Source: Eledone cirrhosa (taxonomy: Eukaryota). Taken from it: DNA of 64,000 nt. The position numbers and the translations under genes are program-made. Under the pieces are notes generated by a model that was given only the letters and a program-made list of their open reading frames with translations, did not search any database and was not told where the DNA came from. Where the stretch lies: assembly GCA_964016885.1 (NCBI GenBank), contig OZ024751.1, forward strand, positions 51,832,001 to 51,896,000. Reading direction: 5' to 3'. Positions within the stretch are counted from its first letter, which is position 1; the number at the start of each line of letters is the position of its first letter. This document shows positions 15,941 through 63,200 of the stretch, piece after piece.

Positions 15941-16319
15941 TCATCATCATCATCATACTTGCATGGGTAGGATGGGCTCTATCCAGTACATTCCCCTTCC
16001 CCTCATAGTGTTACTTATTCATATACTCTCTCAGGTTCAACATTTCAGGAAACTCTTTTCAGTTTAGTTTGACACTTCTTCCTCTAATGTTTCCGTCATA
16101 AATAGACCTAGCTCGCCACTTGTGACGATAGGAAAGGCATGTATGTCCTACTGTAAAAGAACAACCCACAAATTACAGAATACAACCAATACGAGCCTAT
16201 GAAGAAGTCTTTCCTTCCATAGTTACTGAAAATGCTAGAAATAACAGCAAAATCTTCCTTAAATTACACCCTACTGTCATAAAAAAAGAGTTCAGTGGAT
16301 ACTGTCATGATGTCGATTG

Positions 16320-19300: not shown

Positions 19301-20705
19301 GTTGTAGAGGTGGTGGTGGTTGTGGTGGTAGTGGTTGTGGTGATGATGGTTGTAGTGGTGGTGGTGGTTGTGGTGATGATGGTTGTAGTGGTGGTGGTGG
19401 TTGTGGTGGTAGTGGTTGTGGTGATGATGGTTGTAGTGGTGGTGGTGGTTGTGGTGATGATGGTTGTAGTGGTGGTGGTGGTTGTGGTGGTAGTGGTTGT
19501 GGTGATGATGGTTGTAGTGGTGGTGGTGGTTGTGGTGATGATGGTTGTAGTGGTGGTGGTGGTGGTTGTGGTGGTAGTGGTTGTGGTGATGATGGTTGTA
19601 GTATTTGTGAAGTTGATGGTTGTAGTGGTGGTGTTGATGGTTGTAATGGTTGTGGTATTGACGATGGTTGTAGTGGTTGTGGTATTGACGATGGTTGTAG
19701 TGGTTGTTGTATTGATGATGGTTGTAGTGGTTGAGGTATTGACGATGGTTGTAGTGGTTGTGGTATTGACAATGGTTGTAGTGGTTGTGGTATTGACGAT
19801 GGTTGTAGCAGTTGTGGTATTGACGATGGTTGTAGTGGTTGTGGTATTGACAATGGTTGTAGCAGTTGTGGTATTGACGATGGTTGTAGTGGTTGTGGTA
19901 TTGACAATGGTTGTAGCAGTTGTGGTATTGACGATGGTTGTAGTGGTTGTGGTATTGATGATGGTTGTAGTGGTTGTTGTATTGATGATGGTTGTAGTGG
20001 TTGTGGTATTGATGATGGTTGTAGTGGTTGTTGTATTGATGATGGTTGTAGTGGTTGAGGTGTTGACGATGGTTGTAGTGATTGTGGTATTGACAATGGT
20101 TGTAGTGGTTGTGGTATTGACAATGGTTGTAGCAGTTGTGGTATTAACGATGGTTGTAGTGGTTGTGGTATTGATGATGGTTGTAGTGGTTGTGGTATTG
20201 ATGATGGTTGTAGTGGTTGAGGTATTGACGATGGTTGTAGTGATTGTGGTATTGACAATGGTTGTAGTGGTTGTGGTATTGACAATGGTTGTAGCAGTTG
20301 TGGTATTAACGATGGTTGTAGTGGTTGTGGTATTGATGATGGTTGTAGTGGTTGAGGTATTGGCGATGGTTGTAGTGGTTGTGGTATTGACAATGGTTGT
20401 AGTGGTTGTGGTATTGACAATGGTTGTAGCAGTTGTGGTATTAACGATGGTTGTAGTGGTTGTGGTATTGATGATGGTTGTAGTGGTTGAGGTATTGACG
20501 ATGGTTGTAGTGGTTGTGGTATTGACAATGGTTGTAGTGGTTGTGGTATTGACAATGGTTGTAGCAGTTGTGGTATTAACGATGGTTGTAGTGGTTGTGG
20601 TATTGATGATGGTTGTAGTGGTTGAGGTATTGACGATGGTTGTAGTGGTTGTGGTATTGACAATGGTTGTAATGGTTGTGTTGATGGTTGTAGTGGTTCT
20701 GGTGC
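16320..20705. repeat. 4.4-kb GTN/ATG trinucleotide-phased satellite with two sub-arrays
   Basis: Variable units of roughly 30-57 bp (gatgatggttgtagt(ggt)n...) to about 19600, then about 27-bp units (gacgatggttgtagtggttgtggtatt). Confidence 0.95.
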
Positions 20706-20729
20706 TTTAATAAAACAGGAGGAACTTAC

Positions 20730-20934
20730 CCCACTTCAGTAAGAGCAACCATGCCTTCAACTTTCAAACTTCCATGTAGTAAGACACTAAAAGACGGCGC
20801 CTTGCCACCTTCAGCAGCAGCTGCTGCTGCTGCTGCAGCCGCTGCTGCCGCTTTCCCTGCCTCGTCTGTGGTCGATGAAACATCTTCATCTCCATCTTTA
20901 GATTCTTTGTTATTGTTAGTGTCTCCATTGGATT
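20730..20934 (-). CDS. INTS14: INTS14 coding exon 5 (acidic linker with Ala13)
   Basis: GKAPSFSVLLHGSLKVEGMVALTEVG; ttccag/GTAAG; 205 nt, phase 1/2. Confidence 0.93.
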
Positions 20935-21537
20935 CTGGAAATGGGAAAGAAATTTTGTAGCAAAATGCAAAAAGCAAAAAAAAAAATTATTATTATTATT
21001 ATTTGTGCTTTTCCTCTTCTTTCAGTTTTGTTTCCATTTCTTGCTGGGTTTCTCTGTGATATGTAGGACAGAGAAACTCACATCATACATTGATAAACCA
21101 CAAAAATAAACCCCAGATTGTTCACACCATGCACTTTACACAGTCACAAGTATATCATTTGCTTTATGCATGTACACATTATCTATTGAAAATCACATTT
21201 ACAACAGAATGATATTCAATCATATAGGAGTAATCAGTTATTTACAACTTACATAATTCTGGAATATAATCAAATAAAGTTATGTAAAGAAAATTACTAA
21301 GATGGTTATTCTTCTCAATACCAGTTAAAAAATAAAAAAAATGTTTGCACTTCTTGCAGTGGTAGTAATCTAGGAGTCATTCTAAAATAATGTTGTTCCT
21401 TTTCTGAACATTACTAGTGCTCCTACAATCACTGTATTGTAATGACCTTGAGATGCCACATTTTTTTCAATTTCAATGAGCAAATCTTTATATTTTCTTA
21501 GCTTGTCGAATTCTTTTACTACAATATTGTGATCACA

Positions 21538-21568: not shown

Positions 21569-23487
21569 CCGTTTTACGTCCGTTCTTCCACACTAGCATG
21601 GGTTAGACGGGTTGTCCTGTTGTGGGCAGTGTCTGGTCGGCTGACCATGCCTTGCTCATACAGGAACTGATTTGGCTTGATTTCTACAGCTGGATGCCGT
21701 TCCTAACACCAACCTCATTTACAGTGAGTGCTGGGTGCTTTTTCGTGGCGCCTACACGTCCACTTTACAGTGTGGGCTGGGTGCTTTTTTGCCGTGGCAC
21801 CTCCACGACCACCTTGCAGTGGGGGGTGTGGGGGCATATTGTCTATATGCTTCAGCTTGTACCCATGGGAGGTCGGGTACTCTGTATTACTGCGTGACGC
21901 CAGAAGTCACGGTCGTGTGTCATTGTCTTTGAGAGGTGCAATTGGGTAAGGTCGGCTTTTATCACCTCATCCCAGGTCATCTTGGGTCTCCCCACTCCGC
22001 GGTTTCCATCAACTTCTAGTGCTCTGCACCTTTTTATGCAGCTGTCATCCTTCATACGCATCACATGTTCATACCAGCGCAACCGCCTCTCCTGCACACA
22101 GCATTTGATACCTCTTATGCTCAGTCTCTCTCTCAATTCATTTATGCTTTGTCGTTCACGTATATTACTGTTACACATCCATCGGAGCATACAGGCTTCG
22201 TTTCTCTCTAATCTACGTAAGTCTTCCACCTTCAGCGCCCAGGTCTCACTACCATGCAACATCGCTGTTCGGATACACGCATCATACAGTCTGCCTTTCA
22301 TTCTGAGGGAGAAGCCTTTTGCAGCTAGCAGTGGTAGTAGTTCCCTAAACTTCTTCCATCCCGTTCTTACCCTAGTTATTGTACTTTCTGAACACCCACC
22401 TCTGCTGCTAATTCGGTCAGAAGCTGTCTACTGTTTCTACAGGGCCCTCCCAGAGATTGGTGGTACTTGTTTCCTGTGGCTGTTTGCTGCTTGCTGTATC
22501 AGCACAGCTGCTGCATGTGAATCCTACATTCTTAATTAAGCTTCCTGAGATCCCGCTACATCTCTTGTGTACCCATTGTTTGCATTTGGGGCAGAGAATG
22601 GAGTTCCTACCTACACCTTTCCTACATACTGAGCAAGACCATTTCCCTGAGGGGATCTGGGTTCTGTTTTCTCGTCTACTTACAAGGACCTTAGTCTTTG
22701 TCATGTTGACTTTGAGACCCTTTCTTTCTAGTCCCTGCTTCCAAGTTTGGAATTTATTCTCTAGTTCTACCATAGATTCAGCTATGAGTGCGAGGTCATC
22801 AGCATACAGGAGTTCCCATGGGCATCCGGTCTTAAACTCCTCCGTTATTGCCTGCAGGACTATGATGAACAGGAGAGGGCTAAGAACAGAGCCCTGGTGG
22901 ACCCCAACCTGTACGCTAAATTCCTCGCTATACTCATTGTTAATCCTAACTTTGCTGACTGCTCCCCTATACATGGCTTGTACCGCTTTCACAAGCCATT
23001 CATCTTCTCCTAGTTTTCTAAGAGCCCACCAGATTACAGAACGTGGAACTCTGTCAAAGGCTTTCTCAAGGTCGACAAATGCCAAGTAGAGTGGCTTACT
23101 TTTAGCTAGGTACTTTTCCTGTAATTGCCTCACAAGGAAGAGGGCATCAGTGGTGCCTCTCCCTGGTACAAACCCAAATTGCATCTCGTCTATTTTCACC
23201 CGGTCCCTAATCAGCTGTGCTATAACTCTTTCTGTTACTTTCATGACCTGGTCCATCAACTTTATACCTCTATAGGTTCCTCTATCTAGTGCATCGCCTT
23301 TACCTTTGTAGCAGTTGACAATAATGCTATGCACCAATCTTTTGGTATGGCACCTTCTAGTATTACCTGGTTAACGATACGTGTGGTTATAGTGTGACCT
23401 ACAGACCCAGATGCCTTCAGCATCTCGGCAGCTATACCCGATGGACCGGTTGCCTTCCCCATCTTCATATCTTTGATTGCCTTACTT
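21541..23487 (-). mobile_element. RTE subfamily B, 5'-truncated and frameshifted
   Basis: RT and PHD fragments; 3'UTR with (GAT)n tail. Confidence 0.92.
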
Positions 23488-30000: not shown

Positions 30001-33000
30001 TCATCATCATCATCATCATCATCGTTTAAAGTCCATCTTCTACGCTTGCATGGGTTTGGACGGGAGTTTTCCCACTTGAGGCAAGAGTGGTTGTCTTGCT
30101 CGCATAGGACTGTCTGGCGGGTTTTCTACGGCTGGATGCCCTTTCTAACACCAACCATGTTTACAGTGTGGACTGGGAGGTTTTTACCGTGTTACCTACA
30201 CGGCCACATTACAGTGTGGACTGTGTGTTTTTTTGTCGTGACACCTACACGACCTCATTTGTTTCGGACTGGATGTTGTGGTACCAACATAACTTTACAT
30301 TGAAAGGGGTGGTGTGGATGGGGTCGGGGTAGTGGGACGGGGTGTATTTTTGTTAGAGGTGCCTACTGACTGTAGTAGGTTTCACTTTGTAGTTAGGTAA
30401 GGCGGGTCTTCTGTATTACTGTGTAGCGCCAAAGATCTCGGTCCAGTGACATTGTCTTGGAGAGGTGTAAGTGTGTGAGGTCGGAATTTATCAAGTCGTC
30501 CCAGGTTTTTCTGGGTCTGCCTACTCCGTGGCTACGATCTATTTTTATTGCCCTGCACTTTTTTATACAGCTGTCGTCTTTCATGCGCATCACGTGACCA
30601 TACCAACGTAGTCTTCTCTCGAGTAAACAACATCTGATCCCTCTTATTTCTAATTTTTCCCTTAGTTCGTTTATGCTTTGCCGTTCACGTATATTACTAT
30701 TACACATCCAGCGGAGCATGCAAGCTTCGTTCCTCTCCAGTCTGCGTATATCCTCTGCACACAATGCTCAGGTCTCACTGCCATGTAACATTGCTGTTCG
30801 TATGCAAGCATCATACAGCCTGCCTTTCATTTTTAGAGAGAACCCTTTAGCGGCTAATAGTGGTATAAGCTCTCTGAACTTTTTCCATCCAGTTCTGACT
30901 CTAGCTACTGTACTTTCAGAGCACCCTCCACCACTGCTGATTTTGACACCCAAGTAACGGAAGGGGTCCACTATTTCTATAGAACCATCTGTGCAATGGA
31001 ATGAGCTAGTATTCTGTGGGCACTTGCTGCTACTTATTGCACCAGAGCACCGGCCACATGTAAAATCTATGTTCTTAGTTAGCTTACCTGTGATCCCACT
31101 ACATCTTTTATGCACCCATACTTTGCATTTGGGACATAAAATGGAGTTTCTACCTACTCCTTTCCTACACACTGAGCATGGCCATTTCCCGGATGGGACC
31201 GGTGCCCTATTTTCCTTCCTACAAACTAGAACTTTAGTCTTAGACAGGTTAATTTTAAGGCCTTTTTATTCTAGGCCATGCTTCCATGTTTGGAATTTCT
31301 TCTCTAGTTCGGCCATTGATTCCGCTATGAGCGTTAGATCATCTGCGTATAGGAGTTCCCATGGGCAGCCGGTCTTGAACTCCACTGTTATAGCCTGAAG
31401 GGCAATAATAAATAGTAGGGGGCTAAGAACGGAGCCCTGATGAACACCAACTTTTACGCTAAACTCTTCACTATATTCGTTGTTAATTCTAACCTTGCTG
31501 ACTGTTTCTTTATACATGGCTTGTATAGCTCTCACAAGCTATTCATCAACACCTAGTTTTCTAAGAGCCCACCAGATAATGGAACGGGGGACTCTGCCAA
31601 AGGCTTTCTCAAAGTCGACAAAAGCTAAGTATAGGGGTTTACTTTTAGCTAGGTACTTCTCCTGTAGTTGTCGTACAATGAAAAGAGCGTCTGTGGTACT
31701 TTTACCTGACAGAAACCCGAACTGCATTTCATCTAGATCAATTCTCTCTCTGATTAGTTGCGCTATTACTTTTTCTGTGACCTTCATGACCTGGTTGATT
31801 AATTTAATGTCTATCTAGGGCATCTCCTTTACCCTTGTAGCAGTTAATGATGATGCTGCTACGCCACTCCTTCGGAACAACCCCATTCTGTATGACTTGG
31901 TTTACTATCCGAGTGACCATGGTGTGTCCCACCGTTCCAGAAGCTTTCAGCATTTCAGCAACTATTTCCGAAGGCCCAGCCGCCTTACCCGTCTTCATAT
32001 CTTTGATTGCCTTACTTATTATACTACCTTCGACTAACACTGCTGGTCCCTCTATTGGATCGATGTGGGGGAGTCTGTCTTTCTCCCATTTATTCTCCTC
32101 ATTTAGTAGCCTTTCGTAGTGACACTTCCAAGCTACCTTCTTATCAGCGTCAGTGATGGCAAATACACCATCATCATTAAGGACACACTTCTCCCCGACA
32201 ATATCACGGTTTTCCTTGACACATTGCCTAGCAATCCTGAACACCTCACGTTTTTGGTCCTCGCATTGTAGAACATGCTTGAACTTTCTTTCCTCTGCTT
32301 CCCTTCTTGCGAAGTACACTTGTCTCCTAGCTTCCCTCCTGGCCACTTGATAGTCTTCTCTACTTCCCCCATCCCGCCATACTTTCCAAGCCTGCTTTCT
32401 GGCCTTAATTGACTCCTCCACCTTACTGTTCCACCACCACATTACTCTCCTCCTGCCTATAGGCCTGCTCCAGCCACAGACTTCGTCTGCCGCCATCAGC
32501 AAGTTTGCTTTCAGGAATTCCCACTGTTCCTCTATATTGTACGACTCTAATTGCTCTTCCTTACTGTCGAAAGCATCAAGTAATATGCTTTTAAATTTAT
32601 TACTGGCTGTGGGGTCCTTTAGCTTCCATATTTTTCTCCTGAGGATAGTCCTCTTCTGTTGTCGAGTACGTCTCGTCCTGACTATGAGGTCGTTAATTAT
32701 CAGTCTATGTTGGGAGGTGCATTCTTCATGGGGGAGGGATTTAGTGTTTACAACAGACACTCTGTCATGTCTTCTGGTAAGGATATAATCTACCTGGCTG
32801 GTATGTTCCCCTGATCTGTAGGTGATCAAGTGATTGTCTCGTTTTTTTAAGTTAGTGTTACAGATAGTTAGGTTATTTGTGTCACAGAATTCCAGGATTC
32901 TGGAGCCTTCCTCATTTCTAGTACCAAACCCATAGTCTCCATGGATTCCGTCATAGCCGTCACAATGTTGTCCAACGTGACCATTTAGGTCGCCAGCAAT

Positions 33001-33780
33001 AATTATATAGTCACTGTCGGTTATTTGGGAGGTAGTGAGCATTAGTGTCTCATAGAATCTGTCTTTTATAGCGCCAGGCAGTCCGGATTGGGGTGCGTAT
33101 GCAGATATTACTGTCACAGTAGTTCTATTTAGAACAAGTCTTATTTTAATTATTCTGTCATTCACTCTATTTACGTCTATTATCTTATCCACCCATTTTT
33201 CTGCTAACATGATTCCTACCCCACCCAGCCCATTGTCATTTCCCACCCAGAAAAGCTTATAGCATCGTTTTTTACCCACAATGAATCTAGCAGACCCGCC
33301 CCTCCACCTGGTCTCTTGGATACAGCAAACATCAACCTCCTTACGTTCAAGCATTTCTACAACCTCGTTAGGGCGGCCTTTTAAGGTGCCTACATTTATG
33401 GTACCAACTCTGAAGTTTTGGATTGCGTTTGGTGGGTGGGGCGTGGGGAGGGGTGAGGGGGATGGGGATGGGGTTGGGGTTATGTTGGCCATCCGCGGCC
33501 GAAACAAAGAGGAGGAGTCCTTGCCCTTTCGTCCGGCAGCATGAGGTGAATTTGTCGTTATCTTTGGCATTGTCTCCGAGTGTCCAGATTCTTCAGACTC
33601 TCCAGAAATTCCTTAGTCCATCCATCATATCGAAAAGCAACCAGGAGAAGTGATAGCATAGGCCGCTGACTTATGATTGGTCCAAATAATAATGGTGGAG
33701 AGTGGGGGCGGGAGGGATGGGTATGGGGTAGTTAGTGAGGAGAAGGTTTTAAATAAAGCAATAACAGTAACAAGCGATTA
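30001..33780 (-). mobile_element. RTE subfamily A, near-full-length disabled copy
   Basis: Same protein split into ORFs 31804-33570, 31539-31787, 31266-31535, 30768-31172 and 30393-30764 by stops and a frameshift; same 3'UTR and tail; 5' limit approximate. Confidence 0.93.
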
Positions 33781-41435: not shown

Positions 41436-43688
41436 TATATATATACATGCGTGAGTTTGTGTGTGTGTGTATATGTGTTAATTAATTCTAGTGCATTAGA
41501 ATTAAGCACTCCATATCACATATACCATTTCTTCTATGATATGGATTTATATAGGCTGATCCACAACAGAGTATCGATATATGCATGATCACAAAGACAG
41601 GGTGCTATTTTGTTCTAAACTGTCATTATGCACATTTATGAATAGGTCAGTGAACATTACATAATGTAATCAGGCAGACACGCCTTCATCAGACGGTTGG
41701 CTAAAGATAAATAAAACGTTTACATAATGCTAGTGACATATTGGACTATGTTCACAGCTGTCTCTGTTTTGACTGTGTTGTGGATGTTTGCTCAATTATC
41801 TAACTTCTGGTTATGATTTATGGATTTGTTGTTATCTTATCTTCTAAGGTCATGTTGACAGTCACAAACAGTATTTTTATTTCCAGGCTGTACTATATTA
41901 CATAATATAGCTATAGCGTTTTAGTTAACACTGCATTTTTTTATAAGTAACAGTAAGCTACATTCTGTATGTCTGTTTCTCTCTCTCTAATATATATTCT
42001 TCTTCTTCTATACATCTGTTACCAGTGGTTTGATGAAGCTCCTCCACTCTGTGTAGCACTTCCTCAGCTTTTTTGCAGGTGTTTGCATCATCATCATCAT
42101 CAACGTTTAACGTCCGTGTTCCATGCTTGCATATATATATATATGTGTTGTGTGTATATATATATATATTTATCACCCATGCTAACATGGAAGGTGGATG
42201 TTAAACGGCGATGATATATATATATACTCTTTTTTTTTTTACCTATTCCAGCCATCTGGCTGAGGCCATGCTGGGGCACCGCCCTTGTATGTGCACACAT
42301 ACACACATATATATATTAACCATGTACATCTGGTTTAAAATAGGTACACTGTAGCCATGTGTGTCATTAAGAAGTGACTAAAAGGGTTGGTGTTAGGAAA
42401 GGCATCTGGTTGTAAAACATTGCCAAAAAAAGTCTCATCCAACCCATAGAAAAGTTAATGTAAAAATGATGATGAGTGTGATATCATTTCATTTTACGTC
42501 CACTTTTCCCTGCTTGCAAGGGTGGGACGGGAACTGATTCTGGCTTGATTTCTACAGCTGGATGCCCTTCCTAACACCAACCTCATTTACAGTGAGTGCT
42601 AGGTGCTTTTTTGCCGTGGCACCTCCACGACCACTTTACAGTGGAATGATAGGGACTGGAGTCCCTATCATCTCATTTCTACAGCTGAGTAAACTGGAGC
42701 AATGTGAAATAACGTATCTTGCTCAAGGAAACAACACATCACCCGGTCTGAGAATTGAACTCACAACCTTTCGATTGCAAGGCCAATGCTCTAACCACTA
42801 AGCCCTGTGCCTCCATATATATATATATATATTCAGTTTAGTCAGGCTTTTCAGGGCTGAGGAGAAAAGGAATCCTAAACCCAAATGCTTTTAATAGAGA
42901 GAACTCACCTAAAAGCATTCATCATTATCATTTAACGTCTGTATAAGCATGGGCAAGGCTTGAGAAATGAAGATAGAAAAGTAATGACGAAGATATAACG
43001 TACATGTACTTTAGATATAAATATGTCAATTCTTAAATATATATACAGTATGGTGAGGAATGTACAGGGAAGAAACATAGAAGGCAAGGGAGGTAATAAA
43101 AAAAATATATATTTAGTTCTTAGGTTGGCGAGTTGTTTAGCTACATGTCAAGACTAATTGAGCAGACCATTCCACCTTATTTTCAGACATTGTATTCAGT
43201 ATTACATTACCCAATGTATCGTTTCTTACCCCAGTTGGTAAGGTGTGATTAGAAGGAAATTTGGCTGCTATTTGTAGCAAGTCATTCAACCACAGAGATG
43301 GACGCTGGAAGAGGTTGATATTAATACAAGCATCAGATAGCAACAGAAAATATAATAAAAACTGACTGAGCAAACCTATGGTCAAAAACATTCCAGCCAT
43401 GACAACCCCATCTTTTTCTTGAGCATAACATGTGTAGGACTACATTATCCAATAAGTACCTCTCTTTTCAAGACGGAAGGTTGTAAATTGAGAGACACAT
43501 GGCTGTTGTTTCTAGCATGAGGCATTTTATTTGTCACTCTACCATAGCATAAAAAGACACAGAAGGAGAGTGGCGAATAAGAAGGAAGAGAAGAAGGAGT
43601 AGGAGAGAAGAAATATTAACATCCATTATAACTAATGTAAACACACACAATGTGCAAAATTTGGTCAATAATAAAGAAGAATACGTAC

Positions 43689-44080
43689 TTCTCATAAGGT
43701 TCTGGTGGTGGATATAGTTGGACTGTACATTTTAGTTGACCACAAGTCAATGTCATAACATAGGGAGAGAAAATATCATCAGCAAATCTTTGAAACATCT
43801 GTTGAACTGATTTTGTGGAAAGAGCAGCATCTGGGGTATAAACATCACCTCCATAACCGTTAATGTCAATTAATTTTTGAAAGAGTGGCAATGAAATGCG
43901 GAGGTTAGGATCCGATGGAGGTGCAATGCACAGTACATATAGTTTACATCTGGTACTGAAAGGTAACGGAAAGCTTCCCTTTTCACTGCTGCTCTTTGAT
44001 TCTCTTTTATGATATTTCTGTAATGAGTAAGACAAGGAACCAGGACCAACACCGGAACAACCATCTGTGATTAACAGAAC
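43689..44080 (-). CDS. INTS14: INTS14 coding exon 3
   Basis: VLLITDGCSGVGPGSL...FPLPF...LTCGQLKCTVQLYPPPEPYE; tttcag/GTACGT; 392 nt, phase 0/2. Confidence 0.95.
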
Positions 44081-46207: not shown

Positions 46208-46955
46208 GAGTGTTTATATTAAGAGAGATTGAAATTTAAGTTTGATATATTTTATTCATAATCATGCATAACACGTTTCACAAATGATCAGCTCAGGGCC
46301 AATTGGAGTTGATTAAGGCCGCAAGATGATCATTTCGAAAACAAGTGTTATACATGACTACATAAAACTGAAACTTTTTCTCTTATTTAATATTATATAC
46401 ACACACACATATATATATGAAGCAACATTCGCCATCTTATCTACTCGCCAGATGAAAACTATACCTAAGTTAAACCATAAAACTTTACAAGTAATATAGG
46501 AGCATGTTTTGAAACCTAAGGTAATGATCAACTGTGTCAAACAGGCATTCATAATATTTCAGCTCTGTTGATAACATACAGCGCACCTTTTCTTTCATCC
46601 TTTCTAAAGAAACCCTTGTTATAACATATATATATATGTATATATACACATATACATATGTGTATATATATATATATGTTGACTAAAGAAATTTTAGCCT
46701 GATAGAGGGGTTTAGAACCCTCAGAGAAATCGAAAAAGATGAGTATTGACGTACATGTACGTCAATACTCATCTTTTTCCATTTTTCTGAGGGTTCTAAA
46801 CCCCTCTATCAGGCTAAAATTTCTTTAGTAAAAAAATATGGTGAAAGCTTCTATTTTCTAATTTCAAACTTGCTCGCTGTTTCAAAACATACTTACTTGA
46901 TATATATATATATACACACACACATATATATATATACATACATACACACACACAC

Positions 46956-47043
<88 letters not shown>

Positions 47044-47096
47044 TATATATGTATATCAGAAAAAATAAAATCTATTGAAATGTGGAAGGATCTTAC

Positions 47097-47258
47097 AAGT
47101 GATGTAAATTCTAATTTACAATTGGTTCCCATATAATCCAGTAGTGTGTTAATTCCTTGTATAGCTAGATGTCTCCGTTGATATTCTTCAGAGAATTCTG
47201 GCAGGTTTACAGGTCGACTCATTGACAGTGAGCCATCCAGAAGGATGATGGTCGGCAT
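47097..47258 (-). CDS. INTS14: Integrator subunit 14, coding exon 1 (VWA start; exon begins 47266)
   Basis: MPTIILLDGSLSMSRPV...EEYQRRHLA...KLEFTSL matches the INTS14 N-terminus; acceptor ttttcag at 47267, donor GTAAGA at 47096; phase 0. Confidence 0.95.
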
Positions 47259-48764: not shown

Positions 48765-51700
48765 GTAAGTAAAATTTGAAAACACCAAGTCAAACATCGA
48801 AGCGACGAAATGTACTAAGTTTCTGCTACAAGAATGTTTATATATAAACTTACACACACACATTCTCTTACTGGTTTCAGTCATTAAATCAAGAAGTGCT
48901 GCGACATCTTGAAGGATTTTTTTTTTTGTTATATCGACCCCAGAACCTATTGTAAAGTCTGGTACTTATTTCATTGATTTCTATTTATTACAGGACATAA
49001 GCAGTACCAGTGGTTAAATACAGACACACACATATCTTTGATGAATCGGAGGTCCTGACTTGTGGCATGGTTTCTCATGTACTGGGTGCATTTTATCATG
49101 GTACCGGCACTACCACTTTATTGAGTTGACTGGGTGCACTACCTCTTTACAAAGTGAACTGGCTGCATTTTATTAAGACATCAGCACTACGTCTTTACAG
49201 AGTGTAGCGAGATCATTGTGTCCTCAGTAGGGTAAAAAGAGACAGTAATATGAGAGGTGGGAGTGAAAGTAGGCTGGAAGATGGACTGTATCAGAAGCAA
49301 TGATAGCTATATGTTTGTTGCTGGTGGAGAGAAGATAAAAAGAGAAGACAAGTGTTGAGTAGTAAGTGCTGCTAGAAGTGGCTTTGAGGTGAGAGACTGA
49401 TGGCTGGCATCTCAGAAGTAGGGGAGGTAAATTCATAAGATTGAAGACCAGCGTGCAGTCTTAATGTTAAGATCAGACTAGTCCTACAATTAAGATAGAC
49501 CAATCATACTGTTAAAGTAGGTCATTCTTATTAAAATAAGACTATTCCTATAATTAACTTTAAGGCTCGTCTTTCTGTAATGATAACATAAGTCATACGG
49601 TTAAGATAAGGCTAGTTGTTCTGTGGAGATAAGACCAGTTCTACTGTCAAAGTAAGACTAGTCCACCTGTTAAGAGCAACTATGTAGTCCTACAGTTATC
49701 GATTTTTTTTTATTTTCTGACTTCTACGTGTGAACAACTTTAAGCTGTTACATTATTTTTCTGGGCTTCCATAAAAGTCAGCAAGGCATGAAGGTAAATG
49801 AACAAAAGGAAGAAAACAAACTGGATTGAGATTAAGAAGAGGGGGAGACAATAGAGAGATAAAGGGAAGGAAACTGAGAAAGAGAGCTGTTGGTGGGTAG
49901 GAAAGAACGATAGGGAAATAGAGAAAGAGAGAAGGTGGACAGGTAAAGAGACAGAGGACGGGAAGAAATAGAGGGAATGAGACAAAACAGCAAAGCATTG
50001 TATTCAATTTTCACGGACACATTTTCTTTGAAAAATTCTTTTCGGCGTAATCATTGTAAAATGTATTTAAGAAGGTAAGAATGTTAATTGATTCCCCCCT
50101 CCATTTCTGCACCCCCCACTCTCTTAAAAAGAAATGTTAAAACTCTTTTAATCTTTCCTATATATAATTGGAGGAATTTTTTGAAAATATCTCGTTAGCT
50201 TTGCCGTAATTATTGCGTATAAGATAAGGTTTAGAGTTAAGGTTCATTCAGTTTAGGGTTAGGTAAATATTGGTAAAGTTACCTTCGTCGGCTTGTGTGT
50301 ATGTGTGTAAAAGTGTAGTCACTGTAAATAGTCTGACTATATATTTTCAATTTGCTCCTTCCCACATTCTGGTTGATACGGTAAAGGTGGGATCACTACA
50401 TCTGTAGCCGAACAGAATAAAATTGAAAAATAGCAGGAATTATAGGCAAACTATATTTTGGGGGGAGTTTGGAAGATAACTTGAAAAAATTATGAACAGT
50501 TTTAATTTTGATATGAGAACTTTCAAATAAGAAGTCTTGTATTATAACATCAGGGATGGTTTCCAGTAAGTTGATATGGGAATGGTTAAGCTGTTAACAG
50601 GTAGTTTACTATTACTAACAACAACACAACCACCACCAATATTAATACTAACACCAACACAACTACCACTAGTACTACTATCAACAACAATAACACTACT
50701 ACTAACAACAACACAATCACTACAACTACTAACAACAACAACATAACCACTACCACTAATAATGGTTTCTTAAATAGGCACAAGGCCAGCAATTTTGGGG
50801 GAGGGGAAAGTCGATTAAATCGACCCCAGTGCGTGACTGGTACTTTATTTTATCGACCCCGTAAGGATGAAAGGCAAAGTTAACCTCGGCGGGATTTGAA
50901 CTCAGGCCGTAAAGGACCATAACTATGCTGGAAAGCATAGTGTCTGACACTCTACCGACACTGCCAAAACACGACACAACTAACTACATCACTAACAGCC
51001 AATCCTCTACTCATATAACAGACAATGAACAATAGGGTTTAGTAAGCAGTGTAGCTGTGAATCATACATTTATTCAACTTGTATTCATCATCATCATCGT
51101 CACTCACCCTTCTATACTGTCATGGGTTGATTGAGACTTTTGAGGACAGGGATACTGTGTGTATCCATTCTAAAAACTGGGATACACACAGTTCTGTACA
51201 GAGTACAGAGTAAGTCGTTCAAAGGTCAATGAAATCAATAAACATCATTAAATGTTGGGATTGATTGTAATTGATTGCACACAAGCCCAAAGCCAAAATG
51301 TAGGACCCTGTAGAGATGTTACAAACAATTAAAGGGCATATGCACGCACACATACAAAGAGCAAATGCATACATACACACACAAAGAGCTTACATACACA
51401 CATACAAAGGGTATATGCATTCATACATACAAATACATGTACATGCATGCAATATAGATATATAGATAGATAGATAGGTGTGTTATTGTTTTAGTATTTG
51501 AAGTAACATTTAAAGGGCATGTATATATAAAATATATATCAAAGAATATATACATTTGTGTGTGTGCATAGATTGAGAGACAGATAGATGCTTGCATATA
51601 TGTATGTATATCATCATCATCATCATTTTATGTCCGCTTTTCCCTGCTTGCAAGGGTGGGACGGGAACTGATTCTGGCTTGATTTCTACAGCTGGATGCC

Positions 51701-52108: not shown

Positions 52109-52210
52109 ATTGACAAAGAACATATGGTAATATATTGATTGCCTTTCCATTATACCCAAACCTACATTTCATCGTATTCAGACCTTTTGTTTTCCTGTTT
52201 CATTTTATAG

Positions 52211-52309
52211 CATGGCTGTTTAGCACAGCTAAGGCTGTGTGGAGGCATCGATGCTATGCTACAACTATGAACTCTTCAGTCTTCATCTCTAGTTTTTGAT
52301 CAACCTCAA
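52211..52309 (+). other. Probable 5'UTR exon of the orphan gene
   Basis: cattttatag acceptor and gtaagt donor; stops in all three frames. Confidence 0.45.
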
Positions 52310-53249
52310 GTAAGTGGTGCTTCTGTTGTTTCTGTCAGTTTTGTCAATGTTCTTAACATATTATTCTTACTATACATATTCTCACACACACACATATATA
52401 TATAGGAGACGAGTCAGGGCCCAAACGGCTGAGCTCCGCCCATTTTAACAGCTAGATCCAAAATGGCCGGAGCTCTGCCATCGGGGTCCTGACTCTTCTC
52501 CTGTTACCTAATCTACTACCCTAACTATTGAGTACTCTGGTGCGTTATGGTCCACCTGGTATCCTACCACACCCTCTTTGTTATATATATATTCATATAT
52601 ATATATATAAATAGTTTAGGGACTGTAACGTCAAGGAAATCATTCTGTCATTACCATAAAAGAAGCCCGATGAGCTTTTGATTTCAAAGTCAGGCCTGGT
52701 TAATACAGATCAAACCTTGAGCTGATCAATCACGAAACGCACGTCACACCTCAATAAATGTAATAAAGATTTAACACCTTGTCCATATTATATATATATA
52801 TATACCCTTGCAAGCAGGGAAAAGCGGATGTAAAATGATGATGATGATGATGATGATGAACATGTGGATATTCAGATACACACACACATGCTCACACACA
52901 GACATACCCACATTTACCCTCACACATATGCACACAAAATAATTCTGCTACAGACAATATAGAAAGTCACAAACACACACATAGAGACATGCATACACAC
53001 ATTCATCCGACACACGTGAAAATACACACACGCATACACACACAAATGTACACACATACTTAAGAACAATAGAAGAAAATCACATATACACACACGCACA
53101 CAAATAACAAAGAACTCACAGACATACACACTTATCTCCAAAAGATGATGCGTCCTACACACCAGTGCATCTTATACTCTGAGATATATGATATTATATA
53201 CATGTCTTTTTTTCCTGTTTCAGGCTAGAGAAAGTAAAATATTTCCAAT

Positions 53250-53347
53250 ATGTCTAACAGTATTATAGCTGCACTGACTGCTGCCAGTGCTATTGCGGTG
53301 ATTAACCTCATCTTTATCATTGCTTTCATTATTTGGAGATGTAAACG
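53250..53347 (+). CDS. Orphan single-pass membrane protein, coding exon 1 (TM helix); exon starts 53224
   Basis: MSNSIIAALTAASAIAVINLIFIIAFIIWRCK(R); acceptor tttcctgtttcag; in-frame upstream TAA at 53235; donor GTAAAT; phase 2. Confidence 0.75.
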
Positions 53348-53384
53348 GTAAATACAATTTATATATTTCCCTGCAGTATTTGTG

Positions 53385-53700
53385 TGGGAAGGCATGTGGT
53401 TTTGTGGTTAGGGAATTTGTCTCACGATTGTATGGTCGTCAGATCAATTCCTGGTGGTGCGTTGTGTTCTTGAACAAGACACTTTTGCACCAGTTTACTC
53501 AGCTGCCAAAAATGAGTTGCACCTATAATTCGAAGGGCCAGCTTTGTCACATTCTGTGTCACACAGAATCTCCCTGAGAACTACGTTAAAGGTACACATG
53601 TTTGTGTAATGCTCAGCCACTTGCACATTAATTTCACAAGCAGGCTGTTCCGTTGATCAGATCAACTGGAACACTTGTCATCGTAACTGACAGAGTGCCT
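53385..53700 (+). mobile_element. tRNA-SINE family (second copy 62308-62600)
   Basis: Shared head and body aagggccagc...aatctccctgagaac. Confidence 0.6.
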
Positions 53701-54510
53701 TCCATTCCACTTGGGTGGCAAGTTATTTGATCTGAGACAGGGTTTTGAAACAAAAGCATTTATACCGTGGAAAAGTCATTTTAATCACAGTTAAACTTAT
53801 TTGGGTGAAGGTGCATGGCTGAGTGATTAGAGAATTGGATTCGCAATCATGAGGTTGTGAGTTCAATTCCTGGACTGGGTGATGCGTTATGTCCTTGAGC
53901 AAAACACTTTATTTCATATTGCTCCTTCCTTTTGGAATTGCAACCAGTAGATAGTATTAGCAATTGGAAACAATGTTTCCTCGGTCTGATTTGACGAGCT
54001 CTATTTCACTTGTTAAGCAAATGAGTTCTGAGATCTTGTTGATCGACTGTTATATATACTTATTTGGCAAGTGATTTGATCTGAGATTGTGTGTTGAAAC
54101 CAAAGCAATTACATTGTAGAAGAGTCATTTGAGCTATTAAAAAAAAAAATCTTGCTAACTTCACTTTACATCTATCATTTATTTCTTGTTGACCAAATTT
54201 TCCTCAACTGTTTGCAACCTGGTCATTCAAATAATTGCACTCCACTACTTTTTTTTTCAAGTCTGGTACATATTTTATCGATCACTTTTTGTCAAACTGT
54301 TAAGTTAAAGTTAATAAACCCAGACATGGATACACTAACACACACACATGGGAAATGGATATAAAATGATGACAATGGAGTCATCTTCTTCATCTTGGTC
54401 TTTTTAAACATTTTAACCTCATCTTTTCTGTTTTGTAAGACATATCATTTCAAACTATTTCCTGCAAGTTCATCCTAATATTTATGATTTTCTTTCAACA
54501 ATAAAAAAAG

Positions 54511-54812
54511 GTGGAGAAAACCAAAGCCTGCTGCCATGACTCCACTGTCGTCCCAACCAACTGTATTGAAAAGAAAGCCCATAAATATCAACAGAATAGA
54601 TTTGAACCAAGAACACTTTACTGTGCCACCACAAAACTCCTACATTTATACATTACCAAGTGAAATACAGCCAGTTCCTCACAGAAATCCTATTCCATAT
54701 CACATGCAATCAAACAAACCCCTTAATAGAGGATGGCCACCTTCTGAACAGTTTTTAACCATGAATGATTCAATTATCTGGCGTCCAGTTGAGAATAACG
54801 GTTTTCTTCCTG
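54511..54812 (+). CDS. Orphan membrane protein, coding exon 2 (Pro-rich tail)
   Basis: AG at 54509-10 restores the frame (CG+G=Arg); WRKPKPAAMTPLSSQ...NNGFLP; donor GTAAAT at 54813; phase 1. Confidence 0.7.
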
Positions 54813-54938
54813 GTAAATATCTCAATAGAATTTTGGAACGTTGGTTCATTCCTTTACTCTTTTTATTCATATTATTTATCATCATCATCTCCGTTAAACA
54901 TTCATTTTTCCATGAATGGGTTAGATGAGAAAAGGAAA

Positions 54939-55016
54939 TGCTTACAGCACCTAGATTTCCCAAGCGGTCACCTATCTAAGTACTAATTGGTAATCAGACG
55001 AGAACTGGTGTTTTCA
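54939..55016 (-). pseudogene. 5S rRNA-derived fragment with internal deletion
   Basis: tgaaaacaccagttctcgtctgat...ttagtacttagataggtgaccgcttgggaa...gtgctgtaagc follows the 5S consensus. Confidence 0.75.
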
Positions 55017-55877
55017 TATTATATTATTTATGGTGATGAAAAGCAGTGGATTAGCAGAATTGTTAGAGCATCAAATGCTTTGTGGTATTTGTTCCAGCTC
55101 TCTACGCTCTGAATTCAAATCCCACTAAGGTGAACTTTGACTTTCGGCCTTCCAGAGTCAATAAAATATAGTACCAGTTAAATACTGAGGTTGATACAAT
55201 CGATTTCCCCAAATACCAAATTGCTAACCTTGTGCCAATATTAGAAAAAATATTTATAATATTTATTATTTATCTTATATACTATTTTCATTATATATAT
55301 TTATGTATTTACATTATATATTATTTATGATGATGATGATGATGATATTTACATCATATATTATTTTCATTATATATTATTTATTATTTAGTAGGCGGTG
55401 GATTGGCAGTATCAGTAGAGGGTCAGACGCCATTCTGAGTTCAAATCACGCTGAGGTTAACTTTGCCTTTCATCCTTAGGGGGTTGATAAAATAAAGTAC
55501 CAGTAATGTACTGGGATAATTGCTGGCCTTGTGCCAAAAGTAGAAACAATTATTTACCTTATGTATTATTTACATTATATATTCTTTATTATGTATTATT
55601 TGCATTATATATTCTTTATTATGTATTATTTGCATTATATATTCTTTATTATGTATTATTTACATTATATATTATTTATTATGTATTATTCACAATCCCG
55701 CCGAGGTTAACTTTGCCTTTCATCCTTACGGGGTCGATAAAATAAAATACCAGTAATACACTGGGATAATTGCTGGCCTTGTGCCAAAAGTAAAAACAGT
55801 TATATATTATTTACATTATATATTATTTATTATATATTATTTTCATTAAATATTATTTATTATGTATTGTTTTCCAG

Positions 55878-55896
55878 ACACAGAAGAAGAAAATCT
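55878..55896 (+). CDS. Orphan membrane protein, 19-nt microexon
   Basis: ttgttttccag|ACACAGAAGAAGAAAATCT|gtaagt; phase 1/2; encodes DTEEEN. Confidence 0.7.
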
Positions 55897-56324
55897 GTAA
55901 GTAATATTTTCATCTATGAAAGATGTGAATTGGCTATCTTTCATCCTTTCAAAGTCAGTAAAGTACCAGTTTAATATTGAGGGTGATTCATTCATTATCT
56001 TTTTCACTTTCTCACTCTCAAAGAAATCATCTCTGTTCAGACCCAAGATTAAGGAGCCTTCTTTACCTTTAACTATTTATAAATACAATAAGTTTCATAA
56101 AAATGTAGTAAATTGTGAATCTTGACAACTCATGCTTGTATGGAAAAATTTCTGTTAATAGAATTATTAAAATTTATATATATTATTTGAATGTTATATT
56201 TTTATTAATAATTTTCTATAGTTAGACTTTGTACCATTTGTAGAAAATTATATAATTTAATATTTCTTGGTTATTATTAAAATTATTTTAAATGTTCTTT
56301 CTTTTTTCTTTTTAACTCTTCCAG

Positions 56325-56331
56325 GGACTCA
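56325..56331 (+). CDS. Orphan membrane protein, 7-nt microexon
   Basis: Long polypyrimidine tract then ccag|GGACTCA|gtgagt; phase 2/0; encodes LDS. Confidence 0.68.
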
Positions 56332-56996
56332 GTGAGTATAATTTTTTATTTATCTCATTATTCATAATCTAATAATTATAAAATAATGAAAAATATGTAT
56401 CCATATGCCAGGTGGTACTATTAAGTTAGACATGTCCTGGGCCAATACTGGCCAAAACACATCACTGGCTGAAACACAGCACTGGCTGAAAAAAAGCGCT
56501 GACTGAAACCCAATACCCAGTTCACCCTGTAAAGTGGTTGGCTTTAGGAAGAGCATCCAGCCATAGAAACCATGCCAAATATGAAATGTAAGGAGCAAAA
56601 TTGATTGCTCCAATTCTCAGCTTGGAAGAGGGATGTAAAATGATGACAACATTCTTTCAAGGTCAATAAAATAACGAACCTGTTATGTACTGGGGTAGAT
56701 ATAATCAATTTTCCCCTTTCTCCAAATGTTTGTCCTTGCGCCAATGCAAGAAAGATTGGATTGGCAGTATCAGTAGAGCATCAGACACCATGCTTTGTGG
56801 CACTGAGTTACAACACTTTACGTTCTGATTTCAAATCCCACTGTTGTTAGCTTCACCTTCCATCCTTACGGGGCTCGATAAAGTAAAGTATCAGTAATTC
56901 ACTGGGGTTGATTTAATCAAGTTTGCCAAAAATTGTTGGCTTTGTACCTGAATCAGAAATCATTATAATAATGTTTTTTTTAATGTCCACTTTCAG

Positions 56997-57101
56997 AATG
57001 TGAAACCTGACTACATGAAAAGACAGAGGGATCCAAATATTGGGTCAGTAAAATATCTACCTGAATTCAATGGTGAAGTATATTATTCCAGGAATATATG
57101 A
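56997..57101 (+). CDS. Orphan membrane protein, terminal coding exon
   Basis: actttcag|NVKPDYMKRQRDPNIGSVKYLPEFNGEVYYSRNI-TGA; phase 0. Confidence 0.68.
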   Translation, partial: NVKPDYMKRQRDPNIGSVKYLPEFNGEVYYSRNI

Positions 57102-57417
57102 TATATGTAGATTGATGTCCATTTGATTTGAAGACATTTTGGAAGGTAAGGAGAAAGAGAGAGAAAAAATAATTAGGAAGTGGAACTAAAAGATTGTTCT
57201 CAATTTATCTACTTCCTAACATGCACATATACACACATATATATATGTGTATATAGATATATATATTTATTTATATATATATAGATATATTTATGTATTT
57301 ATATATATATATAACCAGGAATGATCGAAGCATATTCTATATTACATATATGATTGGCACCTTCCAGCCTGATAAGTTGAGCACTCTACAGTTTCAGGAA
57401 ATTAACCAACATACACC

Positions 57418-60400
57418 ATGGACGTTTATAAATTGGATTATTCTATTAAAAATATACCTACTCCTTCCAACACCACCTATACCAAATTATTAATCGATAA
57501 AATTGAACAAGTCATAAAAAGAATGAGATGGAAGGCTATGATTTTCAATGGACAATTCTGTGTTGATTCTAATGAGTACTTTGACATTAAATCTCGCAAA
57601 TACCCACCTAGAGTTAAGGACATGGCCAACTTCCAAATAGACCTAGTTAACTTAATTAGTGAATTAAAATATCTAAGTACAACAATAATTTTCAATCCAA
57701 ACTCTTTAACGACATCTCTAATTTTAAACACTACAAATACTTTCGTTTTTTCTGACAAAACCAAAAATCTTTTTGAAGTAAATAACAATTTGTATAACCA
57801 ACTATTAACAGATAGCATTACGGCTAAATATCAAATAGCTAACATTAATACTTACAACACCATTAATAATGAAGCTAAAGCCCTAGCTAGTTCTTTAAAA
57901 ATAGATAACCGGATTGAAAGCCTAGCTAAATGTAAAGCATATATTACCCTTAAAGACCATAAATTAGACTTTACTAATCGACCTAGTTGTAGACTAATTA
58001 AATCTGCTAAATCTGAAATTGGCCTTGCGAGTAAAAAAAATCTTAAGAAAAATAATACTTCAAATAAGAACTATGACTGACTTATCTCAGTGGTTAAATA
58101 CATCCTCTGTTATTTCTTGGTTTAATAATATACAAGGAAAAAATAAGTGTAGATTTACCCAATTTAATATTGTTGATTTTTACCCCTCTATCACCGAATC
58201 CTTATTATCAAAAGCCTTAGATTTTGCTAGACTTTTCATTAATATTTCTAAATTAGAAGAAGACGTTATCTTTCATGCTAGGAAAACACTACTCTTTTCT
58301 AATGAAGGTACCTGGGTTAAAAAATCAAGCCCTGAAAACCTCTTTTGATGTTGCGATGGGCTCATATGATAGTGCCGATGTGTGCGACTTAGTAGGATTA
58401 TTCCTCCTCCACACCCTTAAAGAGAAATGTCCTTGCCATAATATCGGCTTCTACTGAGACAACGGTTTGCCATAACCTTAATAAATTCCGTTAAGACTTA
58501 ATTAATACCTTTGCTAACCTAAACCTTAAAATTACTATAGATACGAATCTTACTAATTCTAACTTTCTTGATATCAATCTTGACCTACTTACCGCCTCTT
58601 TTAAACCTTATCATAAACCTAATGAAAATTTAAGATATATATACACAAAGAGTCATGCCATCCCCCTATAGTCTTTAAAAATCTTATTCCTAATATTAGC
58701 CGTAGGATTTCTACCTTATCTTCGTCTATAGACATTTTTAACAAAGCCGGCCCCCAATAACAGCGGCTTCACCGAACAAATTAAATATTTACCTACTCCT
58801 CTTTCTAACATTAAACACAATAACAGGAAAAGAAAATTTATTTTTTTACACCCCCTTCTCTCTAACTGTTAAAACTAACGTAGGAAGAAAATTCCTCAAC
58901 CTCCTAGACAAACATTTTCCCCCTAATCATAGATGTAATAAGATATTTAATAGAAATGTAGTTAAAATCAGTTACTCTTGCTGCCCATCAATGAAAACTA
59001 AAATGACCAACTCTAATGGTACTAGAATAAATCCAGGATGCAGTTGCCGGAAGAATGCCCATTACAGGGTAAATGTAATACCAAATCTATTGTGTATGAG
59101 GCCAAATTGACACCGATGATTAATAACCAGCTAGCCAGGAGTGAACGATATGTTGGCATGACTCAGGACAGATTTAAAATCAGATACTATGCACATGTCG
59201 CTTCTTTCAAACACCCTGAAAAAAGAACAGCAACGGCGCTGGCAAATAAAGTGTGGGAGTTTAAAGACAAAAACATTCTGTTCACTATTGGTTGGTCTAT
59301 TTTAGACCATTCAAGAGAGTACTAAAGGGGCACAAAGAACTGTTCTTTGTGTTATACCGAAAAATTTAGAATTCTCCAAAATTGAAAACCCCTCCCACTT
59401 GTGTCAACTCTAAGACCAAGATCTTTAGATGTTGTCCGCACCTACTTTTTAACTGGATTAACACACCGACGATTACTCAACCACCTTGAGTTTCTTCTTT
59501 ACTTATCACGCCTTCCACTCCCTACCAATATCATTACCTTATGAACACATACTTTCTACCAATATATACTTTTTCTCCCTCATCTCTTTCTATATATTTC
59601 TTTACTTTTATTTTTTATTTTATTTATTTATTTTTTTCAATTGACTTATAATTCCCCCTTCCTACTTTCTACCATACCTTTAACACATACACACCCACCA
59701 CCTTCATCCTTTAACCTATCCAGATATCATCACAAGCACTCACACTCTACTACAACTTTTACACCCCTTTTCTCCCTTACCTGTTCTTAATAATTGTTTT
59801 TATTATTTTATTTCAGTTTTACTCCCCCTTGTCCTTACTAGGTTTTTAAGTATACTCACATAAGGTTGTATGTGGGCGCATATGCTGACAGGCTTATGTG
59901 TACATACATATATACGTGTTTTTATTATTTATAAGTATGTGTGTGTGTGTGTATATATATGTTTGTGTATGTGTACGCGCATTTATAAGCATAGGGATAT
60001 TTATTTAGTCGGTTATTCAACAAAAATATATAATTTTAACTGATTTGAAGCACTCGACAAGTCTTCTGGAGTATAATACCACCCCTTTTTTTTCATTTTT
60101 TCATTTTTTGGTACTCCCCTTTTATACTCCCACCTGCGAGCGTGTGTGTATTTATAGTTTGTCTGCCTATATGTTTATGTACACACATACGCACATGTAT
60201 GTATGTGTGTGTGTATATTTATATATATTTATATATGTATATATATATGTGTGTGTATGTGTTTGTATATATATGTTTTTGTATATATGTGTATAGATTT
60301 ACATATATAGATATACAAATATATGTAAAGATTTACATATATTTGTATGCGTGTGTTAATTTGTTATTGCGTGCGCGCGCGTATGTGTACGTGGGTTATG

Positions 60401-62755: not shown

Positions 62756-62850
62756 TCATTTCTGAATCACTTTTCGTATCTCTTCAGCATCTCTCTGAAG
62801 TTCTTCATTGTCAGGGTCTATTTTTAAGGCAGCCTCATAGTCCTGTAAAC
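62756..62850 (-). CDS. DNAAF4: DNAAF4 last coding exon
   Basis: [31 protein letters not shown]-stop, the characteristic DYX1C1 C-terminus. Confidence 0.92.
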
Positions 62851-63094
62851 CTGTAATTTTAATCCAGAACCAATAGTTAGCTAAGCAGAGAAAAATTGTC
62901 AAAATAGATATTAATTGGCATATAATGACATATCTTTGGAGAAAGTTAGCCTATTATCAGCCTTAGTAAATAACTGGTATATATATATTGTAATGATAAG
63001 AACCAATTTGAACCAGGATTTAGAAGCATGTTTTCCTCTAAAACATTAAATCATTTAATAATAATTATAATTATAATGATAAACAACAATTTAC

Positions 63095-63200
63095 CTTCCA
63101 CAAAAAGCTCCATCTTACAGAATGCTGTACCCCTTCTCACAAATGCTTTGCACCTGCTGCTGGCATTTTGGGGTACTGGTGGAACTAGTAGATCCAATGC
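63095..63200 (-). CDS. DNAAF4: DNAAF4 penultimate exon
   Basis: [35 protein letters not shown]; aacag/GTAAA; 106 nt, phase 0/1. Confidence 0.92.

Follow-up and report, generated by a model that had tools for sequence, protein, structure and literature searches.

What defines the transmembrane adaptor proteins (TRAPs) of vertebrates is a single helix that joins a short outside part to a tail with Tyr motifs and no enzymatic activity (PMC3342071). The same paper describes a CxxC motif in LAT, NTAL and PAG and its absence from LAX, and reports no major sequence homology between LAT and NTAL, while SCIMP carries CxC (PMC7655920). Here we describe a gene of comparable build in a 64,000-nucleotide stretch of the Eledone cirrhosa genome (assembly GCA_964016885.1, contig OZ024751.1, positions 51,832,001 to 51,896,000 of the forward strand), which we call the window and in whose numbering all coordinates are given. 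The gene has five coding exons, two of them microexons of 19 and 7 nucleotides (nt), encodes a protein of 176 amino acids (aa) and adds a distant new member to a family of Octopus genes that is annotated but unstudied. Like LAT, NTAL, PAG, LIME, SCIMP, LAX and GAPT, its protein is predicted to have only a few residues outside the membrane, followed by a single helix and a Tyr-bearing tail without an enzyme domain.

The gene model occupies 53250-57101 on the plus strand, with coding exons at 53250-53347, 54511-54812, 55878-55896, 56325-56331 and 56997-57101 and AG/GT borders throughout. Together these exons amount to 98+302+19+7+105 = 531 nt, or 176 codons and a stop, and the cumulative junction phases are 2, 1, 2 and 0. 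An earlier note, made from the letters of the window, had proposed five GT-AG exons of this total length with matching phases; we reproduced them at the same coordinates and regard the model as almost certainly correct. Exon 1 (53224-53347) comprises a leader of 26 nt with in-frame stops, the ATG at 53250 and residues 1-33, and the acceptor at 53223/53224 indicates that it is an inner exon and not the first of the transcript. Exon 2 encodes residues 34-133, the greater part of a Pro/Asn-rich tail predicted to be disordered, and the coding part of exon 5 runs from residue 143 to residue 176 and through the stop. We also considered an extra ectodomain spliced ahead of the helix but rejected it, because the ATG follows in-frame stops and its Met lines up with the start Met of the orthologues.

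The relatives that place the gene in a family come from Octopus. A phmmer search with the exon-2 peptide against 1.84 billion cluster representatives returned one match (E 9.7e-29), an O. bimaculoides protein of 169 aa (P0003; XP_014772478.1, UniProt A0A0L8HHQ4, LOC106870792). Its cluster has four members, all carrying the name "uncharacterized": P0003 itself, the O. sinensis protein XP_029646630.1 (P0004; LOC115220624, 169 aa) and two O. bimaculoides isoforms, X1 of 143 aa (under three accessions) and X2 of 135 aa. One more relative, a 79-aa piece from O. vulgaris (CAI9733868.1), came from a profile search, and the Octopus records are uncharacterized or hypothetical. The earlier description of the gene as hidden thus does not hold, as its orthologues are already annotated in RefSeq and UniProt.

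Over its whole length, the window protein is colinear with the two full-length Octopus proteins, sharing 97/169 identical residues with P0003 and 96/169 with P0004. By exon, the identity with P0003 amounts to 22/33 in exon 1, 59/98 in exon 2 and 15/30 in exon 5 (23/30 similar), and exons 1 and 5 align without gaps and with the same start Met. The start, the helix, a Cys, the implied exon borders and the frame of the last exon are common to the window and to the LOC106870792/LOC115220624 family, which differs in its length (169 versus 176 aa) and in the first microexon (an implied 16 nt versus 19 nt). The identity between the window protein and its Octopus relatives is 57%, versus 91% between the two Octopus species. 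We call the window copy "orthologue-like", a term that is meant to cover both a more distant octopod orthologue and a paralogue.

Mismatches against P0003 and P0004 have a mean BLOSUM62 score of +0.21 and +0.27, respectively, versus -0.59 +/- 0.19 in neutral simulations run 3000 times at the same level of identity; 70 of these runs kept a stop-free frame. The conservative substitutions and the colinear relatives therefore indicate that the octopod copy is under selection for its protein. Optimal alignment somewhat inflates the observed BLOSUM62 mean, and P0003 and P0004 are 91% alike, so that only two independent lineages are compared.

The gene looks lineage-restricted, in agreement with what had been supposed, and "octopod-restricted" is used here provisionally. 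No relative outside Octopus was found by phmmer, which was run with exon 2, or by the other searches, which covered proteins of at most 296 aa, all of them without a squid, cuttlefish or nautilus control. Among those shorter proteins, a search with P0003 gave one match of 23 candidates, P0003 itself, and a search with the alignment A2 gave two of 337, both from Octopus. A word search with exon 2 among proteins of 80-256 aa returned nothing, not even P0003, which at 169 aa belongs to the set searched; the method is thus insensitive, and little can be read into its empty result. None of the six identifiers (accessions and loci) is mentioned in the main texts of the literature searched, a scope that leaves aside supplements, with their expression tables, and most subscription papers. 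By their listings, papers on microexons and octopus, on transmembrane adaptors and molluscs, and on octopus orphan genes hold nothing on this gene, and a microexon paper (10.64898/2026.09.05.749416) is, by its partial text, about fly microexons.

Sequencing contigs bear on one of the junctions. Of four runs that cover the stretch, all of unrecorded kind, three were placed on the window: runs X1 and X2 are one sample, possibly the window's own source, and run X4 (88 million letters) is a different sample. A 214-nt contig of run X4 matches 54510-54678 by its letters 1-169 only, the remaining 45 letters continuing elsewhere, and it departs from the genome at the predicted exon-2 acceptor, with one shared G. 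The depth of this contig accounts exactly for the two bins there (2.03 and 0.13). Contigs of runs X1 and X2 are continuous through the same intron/exon border (54264/54266-54965). Among the listed joints, no read or contig spans any microexon junction, and among the listed pieces of run X4 none lies over the microexons or exon 5.

Both microexons are placed by the splice sites of the window and by a blind scan for a YAG with at least 10/13 pyrimidines, followed within 3-39 nt by a GTRAG donor. Across 54813-56996 (~2.2 kb) the scan returned two sites only, the 19-nt exon at 55878-55896 and the 7-nt exon at 56325-56331, which substantiates the pair proposed earlier; both are required to reach the conserved last exon. 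Two or more sites were found in 16/500 local shuffles of this interval, and the pattern occurs 9 times in the whole window, counting both strands. Two alternatives to the pair, one exon of 26 nt and a longer exon 5, were rejected, as the window has no GT or AG at the positions that they would require. More AG sites lie inside the 19-nt exon, at 55884 and 55887, and would give forms of 13 or 10 nt with the phase unchanged.

Like the neural microexons that depend on eMIC/SRRM4, the two exons are shorter than 27 nt and have strong GTRAGT donors. The eMIC microexon programme dates from bilaterian ancestors and its exons have a UGC near the 3' splice site, according to bioRxiv 10.1101/2021.02.24.432780. 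Unlike exons of that type, the window microexons have 0 TGC in the 40 nt ahead of either acceptor.

Neither microexon length is divisible by three and nor is their sum, and thus neither exon can be dropped without loss of the tail end: omission of either or both shifts the frame, and the protein then stops at 137, 141 or 137 aa. The linker encoded by the pair is the least conserved part of the protein (1/12 identical at residues 134-145; 1/8 against P0003 in the alignment), and the property that is kept therefore appears to be length modulo three. O. bimaculoides isoform X2 ends four residues past exon 2, as does the double-skip product of the window, with the first and last letters alike, while isoform X1 goes out of frame after the initial part of the linker, as predicted by a skip of the 7-nt exon. 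These ends, which are known from protein records, imply the same exon borders and phases in Octopus. They also imply inserts of 16 nt (from the tail of isoform X1) and 7 nt (from isoform X1 versus the 169-aa forms) in O. bimaculoides, versus 19 and 7 nt in the window; in Octopus, the 7 nt could instead be an exon extension, which is ruled out for the window.

Records from three Octopus species contain the linker in full. We take the microexons to be mostly constitutive and isoforms X1 and X2 to be alignment misses or minor forms. These NCBI-sourced isoforms (P0005 and P0006; O. bimaculoides XP_052829278-81) lack the conserved last block, in contrast to the records of 169 aa. These two models have likely missed the 7-nt exon and with it the conserved tail end, or else they record genuine skipping.

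The protein is predicted to span the membrane once, by a helix at I5-W29 (53262-53336) that is supported by a hydropathy peak of 2.58, by an AlphaFold helix at 3-35 on the orthologue and by conservation. Four uncharged residues precede this helix and six K/R follow it within residues 30-40, and the predicted topology is N-out/C-in, type III single-pass, with no signal peptide. A single juxtamembrane Cys, Cys31 (53340-53342), is conserved in P0003 and P0004; it is the one Cys in all three sequences, there being no CxxC or CxC, and its palmitoylation is possible. The tiny ectodomain, the single helix and the juxtamembrane Cys in a basic patch that the earlier note had described are thus borne out, as predicted features. 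AlphaFold on the orthologue (4-row alignment) gives a single helix, the chain outside it being of low confidence and 117/169 residues having a predicted local distance difference test score (pLDDT) <50, and the tail is predicted to be disordered and without an enzyme domain.

Comparisons with known families returned little beyond this architecture. No Pfam family matches the protein above its cut-off, and up to E 1 there is no match to TRAP families; Syndecan (12.9-16.7 bits versus a cut-off of 25.2) and Cadherin_C_2 (15.6-16.5 versus 31.5) stayed below their cut-offs, in the helix region only, and were rejected. A sequence search of the PDB gave two matches that are not significant (E 0.69 and 2.2), and the Atlas structure search reached a template-modelling (TM) score of at most 0.30. 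By ESM Atlas features, of which scores <0.9 count as leads only, the top match is the Orthopoxvirus OPG164/A36R family (PF05950; 0.92, 163/256 shared features). OPG164/A36R, too, is anchored in the membrane by its N-terminus and has a tail that contains Tyr. The window protein differs from it in having no sequence or Pfam match; three of the ten best matches share the family, an assignment flagged as probably wrong, and the signal is gone without the helix. Clusters of opalin, C1orf185, SCIMP (0.88), LIME1 (0.87), stannin and FAM163 follow at 0.87-0.89, and those of opalin, FAM163, stannin and C1orf185 have the same architecture as the window protein.

The best-kept parts of the tail are residues 45-65 (18/21), 112-121 (8/10) and 146-163 (12/18), and a 21-residue window with 18/21 conserved was reached in 88/5000 permutations. 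Inside the first block, K53-L64 (54569-54604) fits a loose D-motif consensus for mitogen-activated protein kinases (MAPKs) (PMC4670726) and is kept in all three full-length sequences. Y79-T-L-P (54647-54658), which reads YTVP in both orthologues, is the sole conserved YxxP, the consensus for the Crk SH2 domain (PMC5043372). A narrower pattern, [IV]Yx[VL]P (26/2000 shuffles), was devised after the sequence had been seen and is not counted as evidence. The window protein contains no YxN, YxxM, YxxPhi, ITIM (immunoreceptor tyrosine-based inhibitory motif), class I/II SH3, PPxY or dileucine motif.

Our preferred explanation, which we hold tentatively and each functional step of which we infer, is a membrane-anchored scaffold that would hold signalling proteins via short motifs in its disordered tail. 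Cys31 would be palmitoylated, block 45-65 would dock a MAP kinase or a similar partner, phosphorylated Y79 in YxxP would bind a Crk-type SH2 domain, and block 146-163 would bind a further partner. The microexon pair would likely serve to bring the last exon into frame, and skipping of either microexon would yield a shorter protein without the last block, from transcripts that likely escape decay because the stop falls in the last exon. Several results weigh against this explanation. The best 10-residue window is ordinary (2169/5000 permutations), and both motifs, chosen after the sequence was seen, are common by chance: the D-motif pattern occurs in 1198-4555 of 5000 shuffles and YxxP in 1302/2000. 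No S/T-P site that a docked MAPK could phosphorylate is conserved, and Tyr conservation (4/7) is at the background of the tail (71/133). The comparison covers two independent lineages only, and its BLOSUM62 mean is somewhat inflated, as noted above. Finally, an ESM Atlas search with the tail alone found no usable look-alike; since removal of the helix abolishes the matches, the Atlas likeness is that of the membrane anchor.

Among the other explanations, a small accessory subunit, which would bind a receptor, channel or pump mainly by its helix and whose tail would be regulatory, is rather unlikely. Exon 1 is the most identical part (22/33 versus 59/98 and 15/30), and the helix keeps an Ala/Ser/Thr-rich half and the polar Asn19 in all three full-length sequences, features that favour helix-helix contacts. 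The excess of exon 1 over exon 2 is however small, and a 140-residue tail with conserved islands is long for such subunits. We also consider it unlikely that the protein acts in trafficking or has a structural role in the membranes of particular tissues, as a cytoskeleton or vesicle tether and not a kinase scaffold; the architecture common to the opalin, FAM163, stannin and C1orf185 clusters and the lack of a canonical signalling motif set fit such a role, while the absence of YxxPhi, dileucine and PPxY sorting motifs speaks against it, and Atlas scores <0.9 are leads only.

A phosphotyrosine hub similar to LAT or NTAL, at work in the blood or nerve cells of octopuses, appears improbable. The architecture fits and four Tyr are conserved, and the absence of homology or of CxxC is compatible with a TRAP role, as LAT and NTAL are unlike in sequence and LAX is without CxxC. 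Of the likeness to LAT and other TRAPs proposed earlier, the architecture therefore stands and the motif set of the LAT type does not: in contrast to LAT, NTAL and PAG with CxxC and SCIMP with CxC, the window protein has the single Cys31, and in contrast to LAT, NTAL, LAX and GAPT with several Grb2-binding YxN motifs, it has none (YxN counts are 0 in the window protein and P0003 and 1 in P0004). Of the Tyr motifs put forward with it (YIYTL, DYMK, YLPEF and VYYS), none is YxxPhi, YxN or YxxM, and YLPEF is not conserved in the orthologues. A frame joined by chance, or a decayed or non-coding copy, is largely refuted and very improbable. The weak pyrimidine tract of the exon-2 acceptor, four upstream ATGs and the lack of microexon junctions in the reads would suit it; it is opposed by annotated orthologues that are colinear and agree in start, exon borders and frame of the last exon, by the conservative substitution bias and by the run X4 contig that stops at the exon-2 acceptor.

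A bolder form of the scaffold explanation, which we regard as a long shot, is an octopod-invented scaffold convergent with vertebrate TRAPs, in which the microexons act as an AND gate that switches the C-terminal block: both in would give the full adaptor and either out a stable tail-less form, and isoforms X1 and X2 would be regulated products. For an unstudied octopus membrane protein there is now a second, distant lineage, which shows the parts kept by selection. Should the protein prove to be a scaffold for signalling, invertebrates would have a counterpart to the vertebrate transmembrane adaptors; the paper listed on that theme is, by its title and the start of its abstract, not about a protein of this kind.

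Upstream of the coding exons, a probable 99-nt 5' untranslated exon lies at 52211-52309 (plus strand), with AG and GTAAGT ends. The depth of run X4 in the bin 52159-52409 (1.26) equals 99 nt x 3.2 / 251, an arithmetic match with no joint among those listed, and is a hint of this exon. It contains four upstream ATGs, each with a stop ahead of the main ATG, and these short frames could damp translation of the main frame. A weak candidate for the first untranslated exon lies at 50330-50565 (plus strand, start approximate), suggested by a donor-like CCA|GTAAG at 50565/50566 and low run X4 cover in bins 50151-50652.

Past the gene, broken frames that we take to resemble a Penelope-like retroelement lie at ~57340-59500 (plus strand), beginning ~240 nt after the stop codon and showing no informative Pfam match; the transcript may be cut short by them or take its 3' end from them. 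The last exons of a tetratricopeptide repeat (TPR) protein lie tail-to-tail with the gene at 62759-63170 (minus strand), with TPR Pfam matches that are weak and below cut-off; we presume a resemblance to DNAAF4/DYX1C1. On the other side, INTS14 lies head-to-head with the gene on the minus strand, with Pfam IntS14_b-barrel above cut-off at 20729-20986 and 43616-43990, and 46893-47258 (minus strand, ATG 47258) is presumably its first coding exon. The INTS14 exon 20726-20986 (minus strand) has a run of ~13 Ala within the beta-barrel match, and directly after it a 4.4-kb trinucleotide-type tandem array (16264-20706) is open over 1480 Thr-rich codons on the minus strand, and most of the other phases have long frames as well; this array is probably an intronic satellite. 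A frame of 1146 codons at 599-4039 (minus strand), in which an endonuclease, a reverse transcriptase and a Cys cluster of PHD-like type all exceed their Pfam cut-offs, is a long interspersed nuclear element (LINE), and broken LINE copies lie at ~21850-23370 and ~30390-33610.

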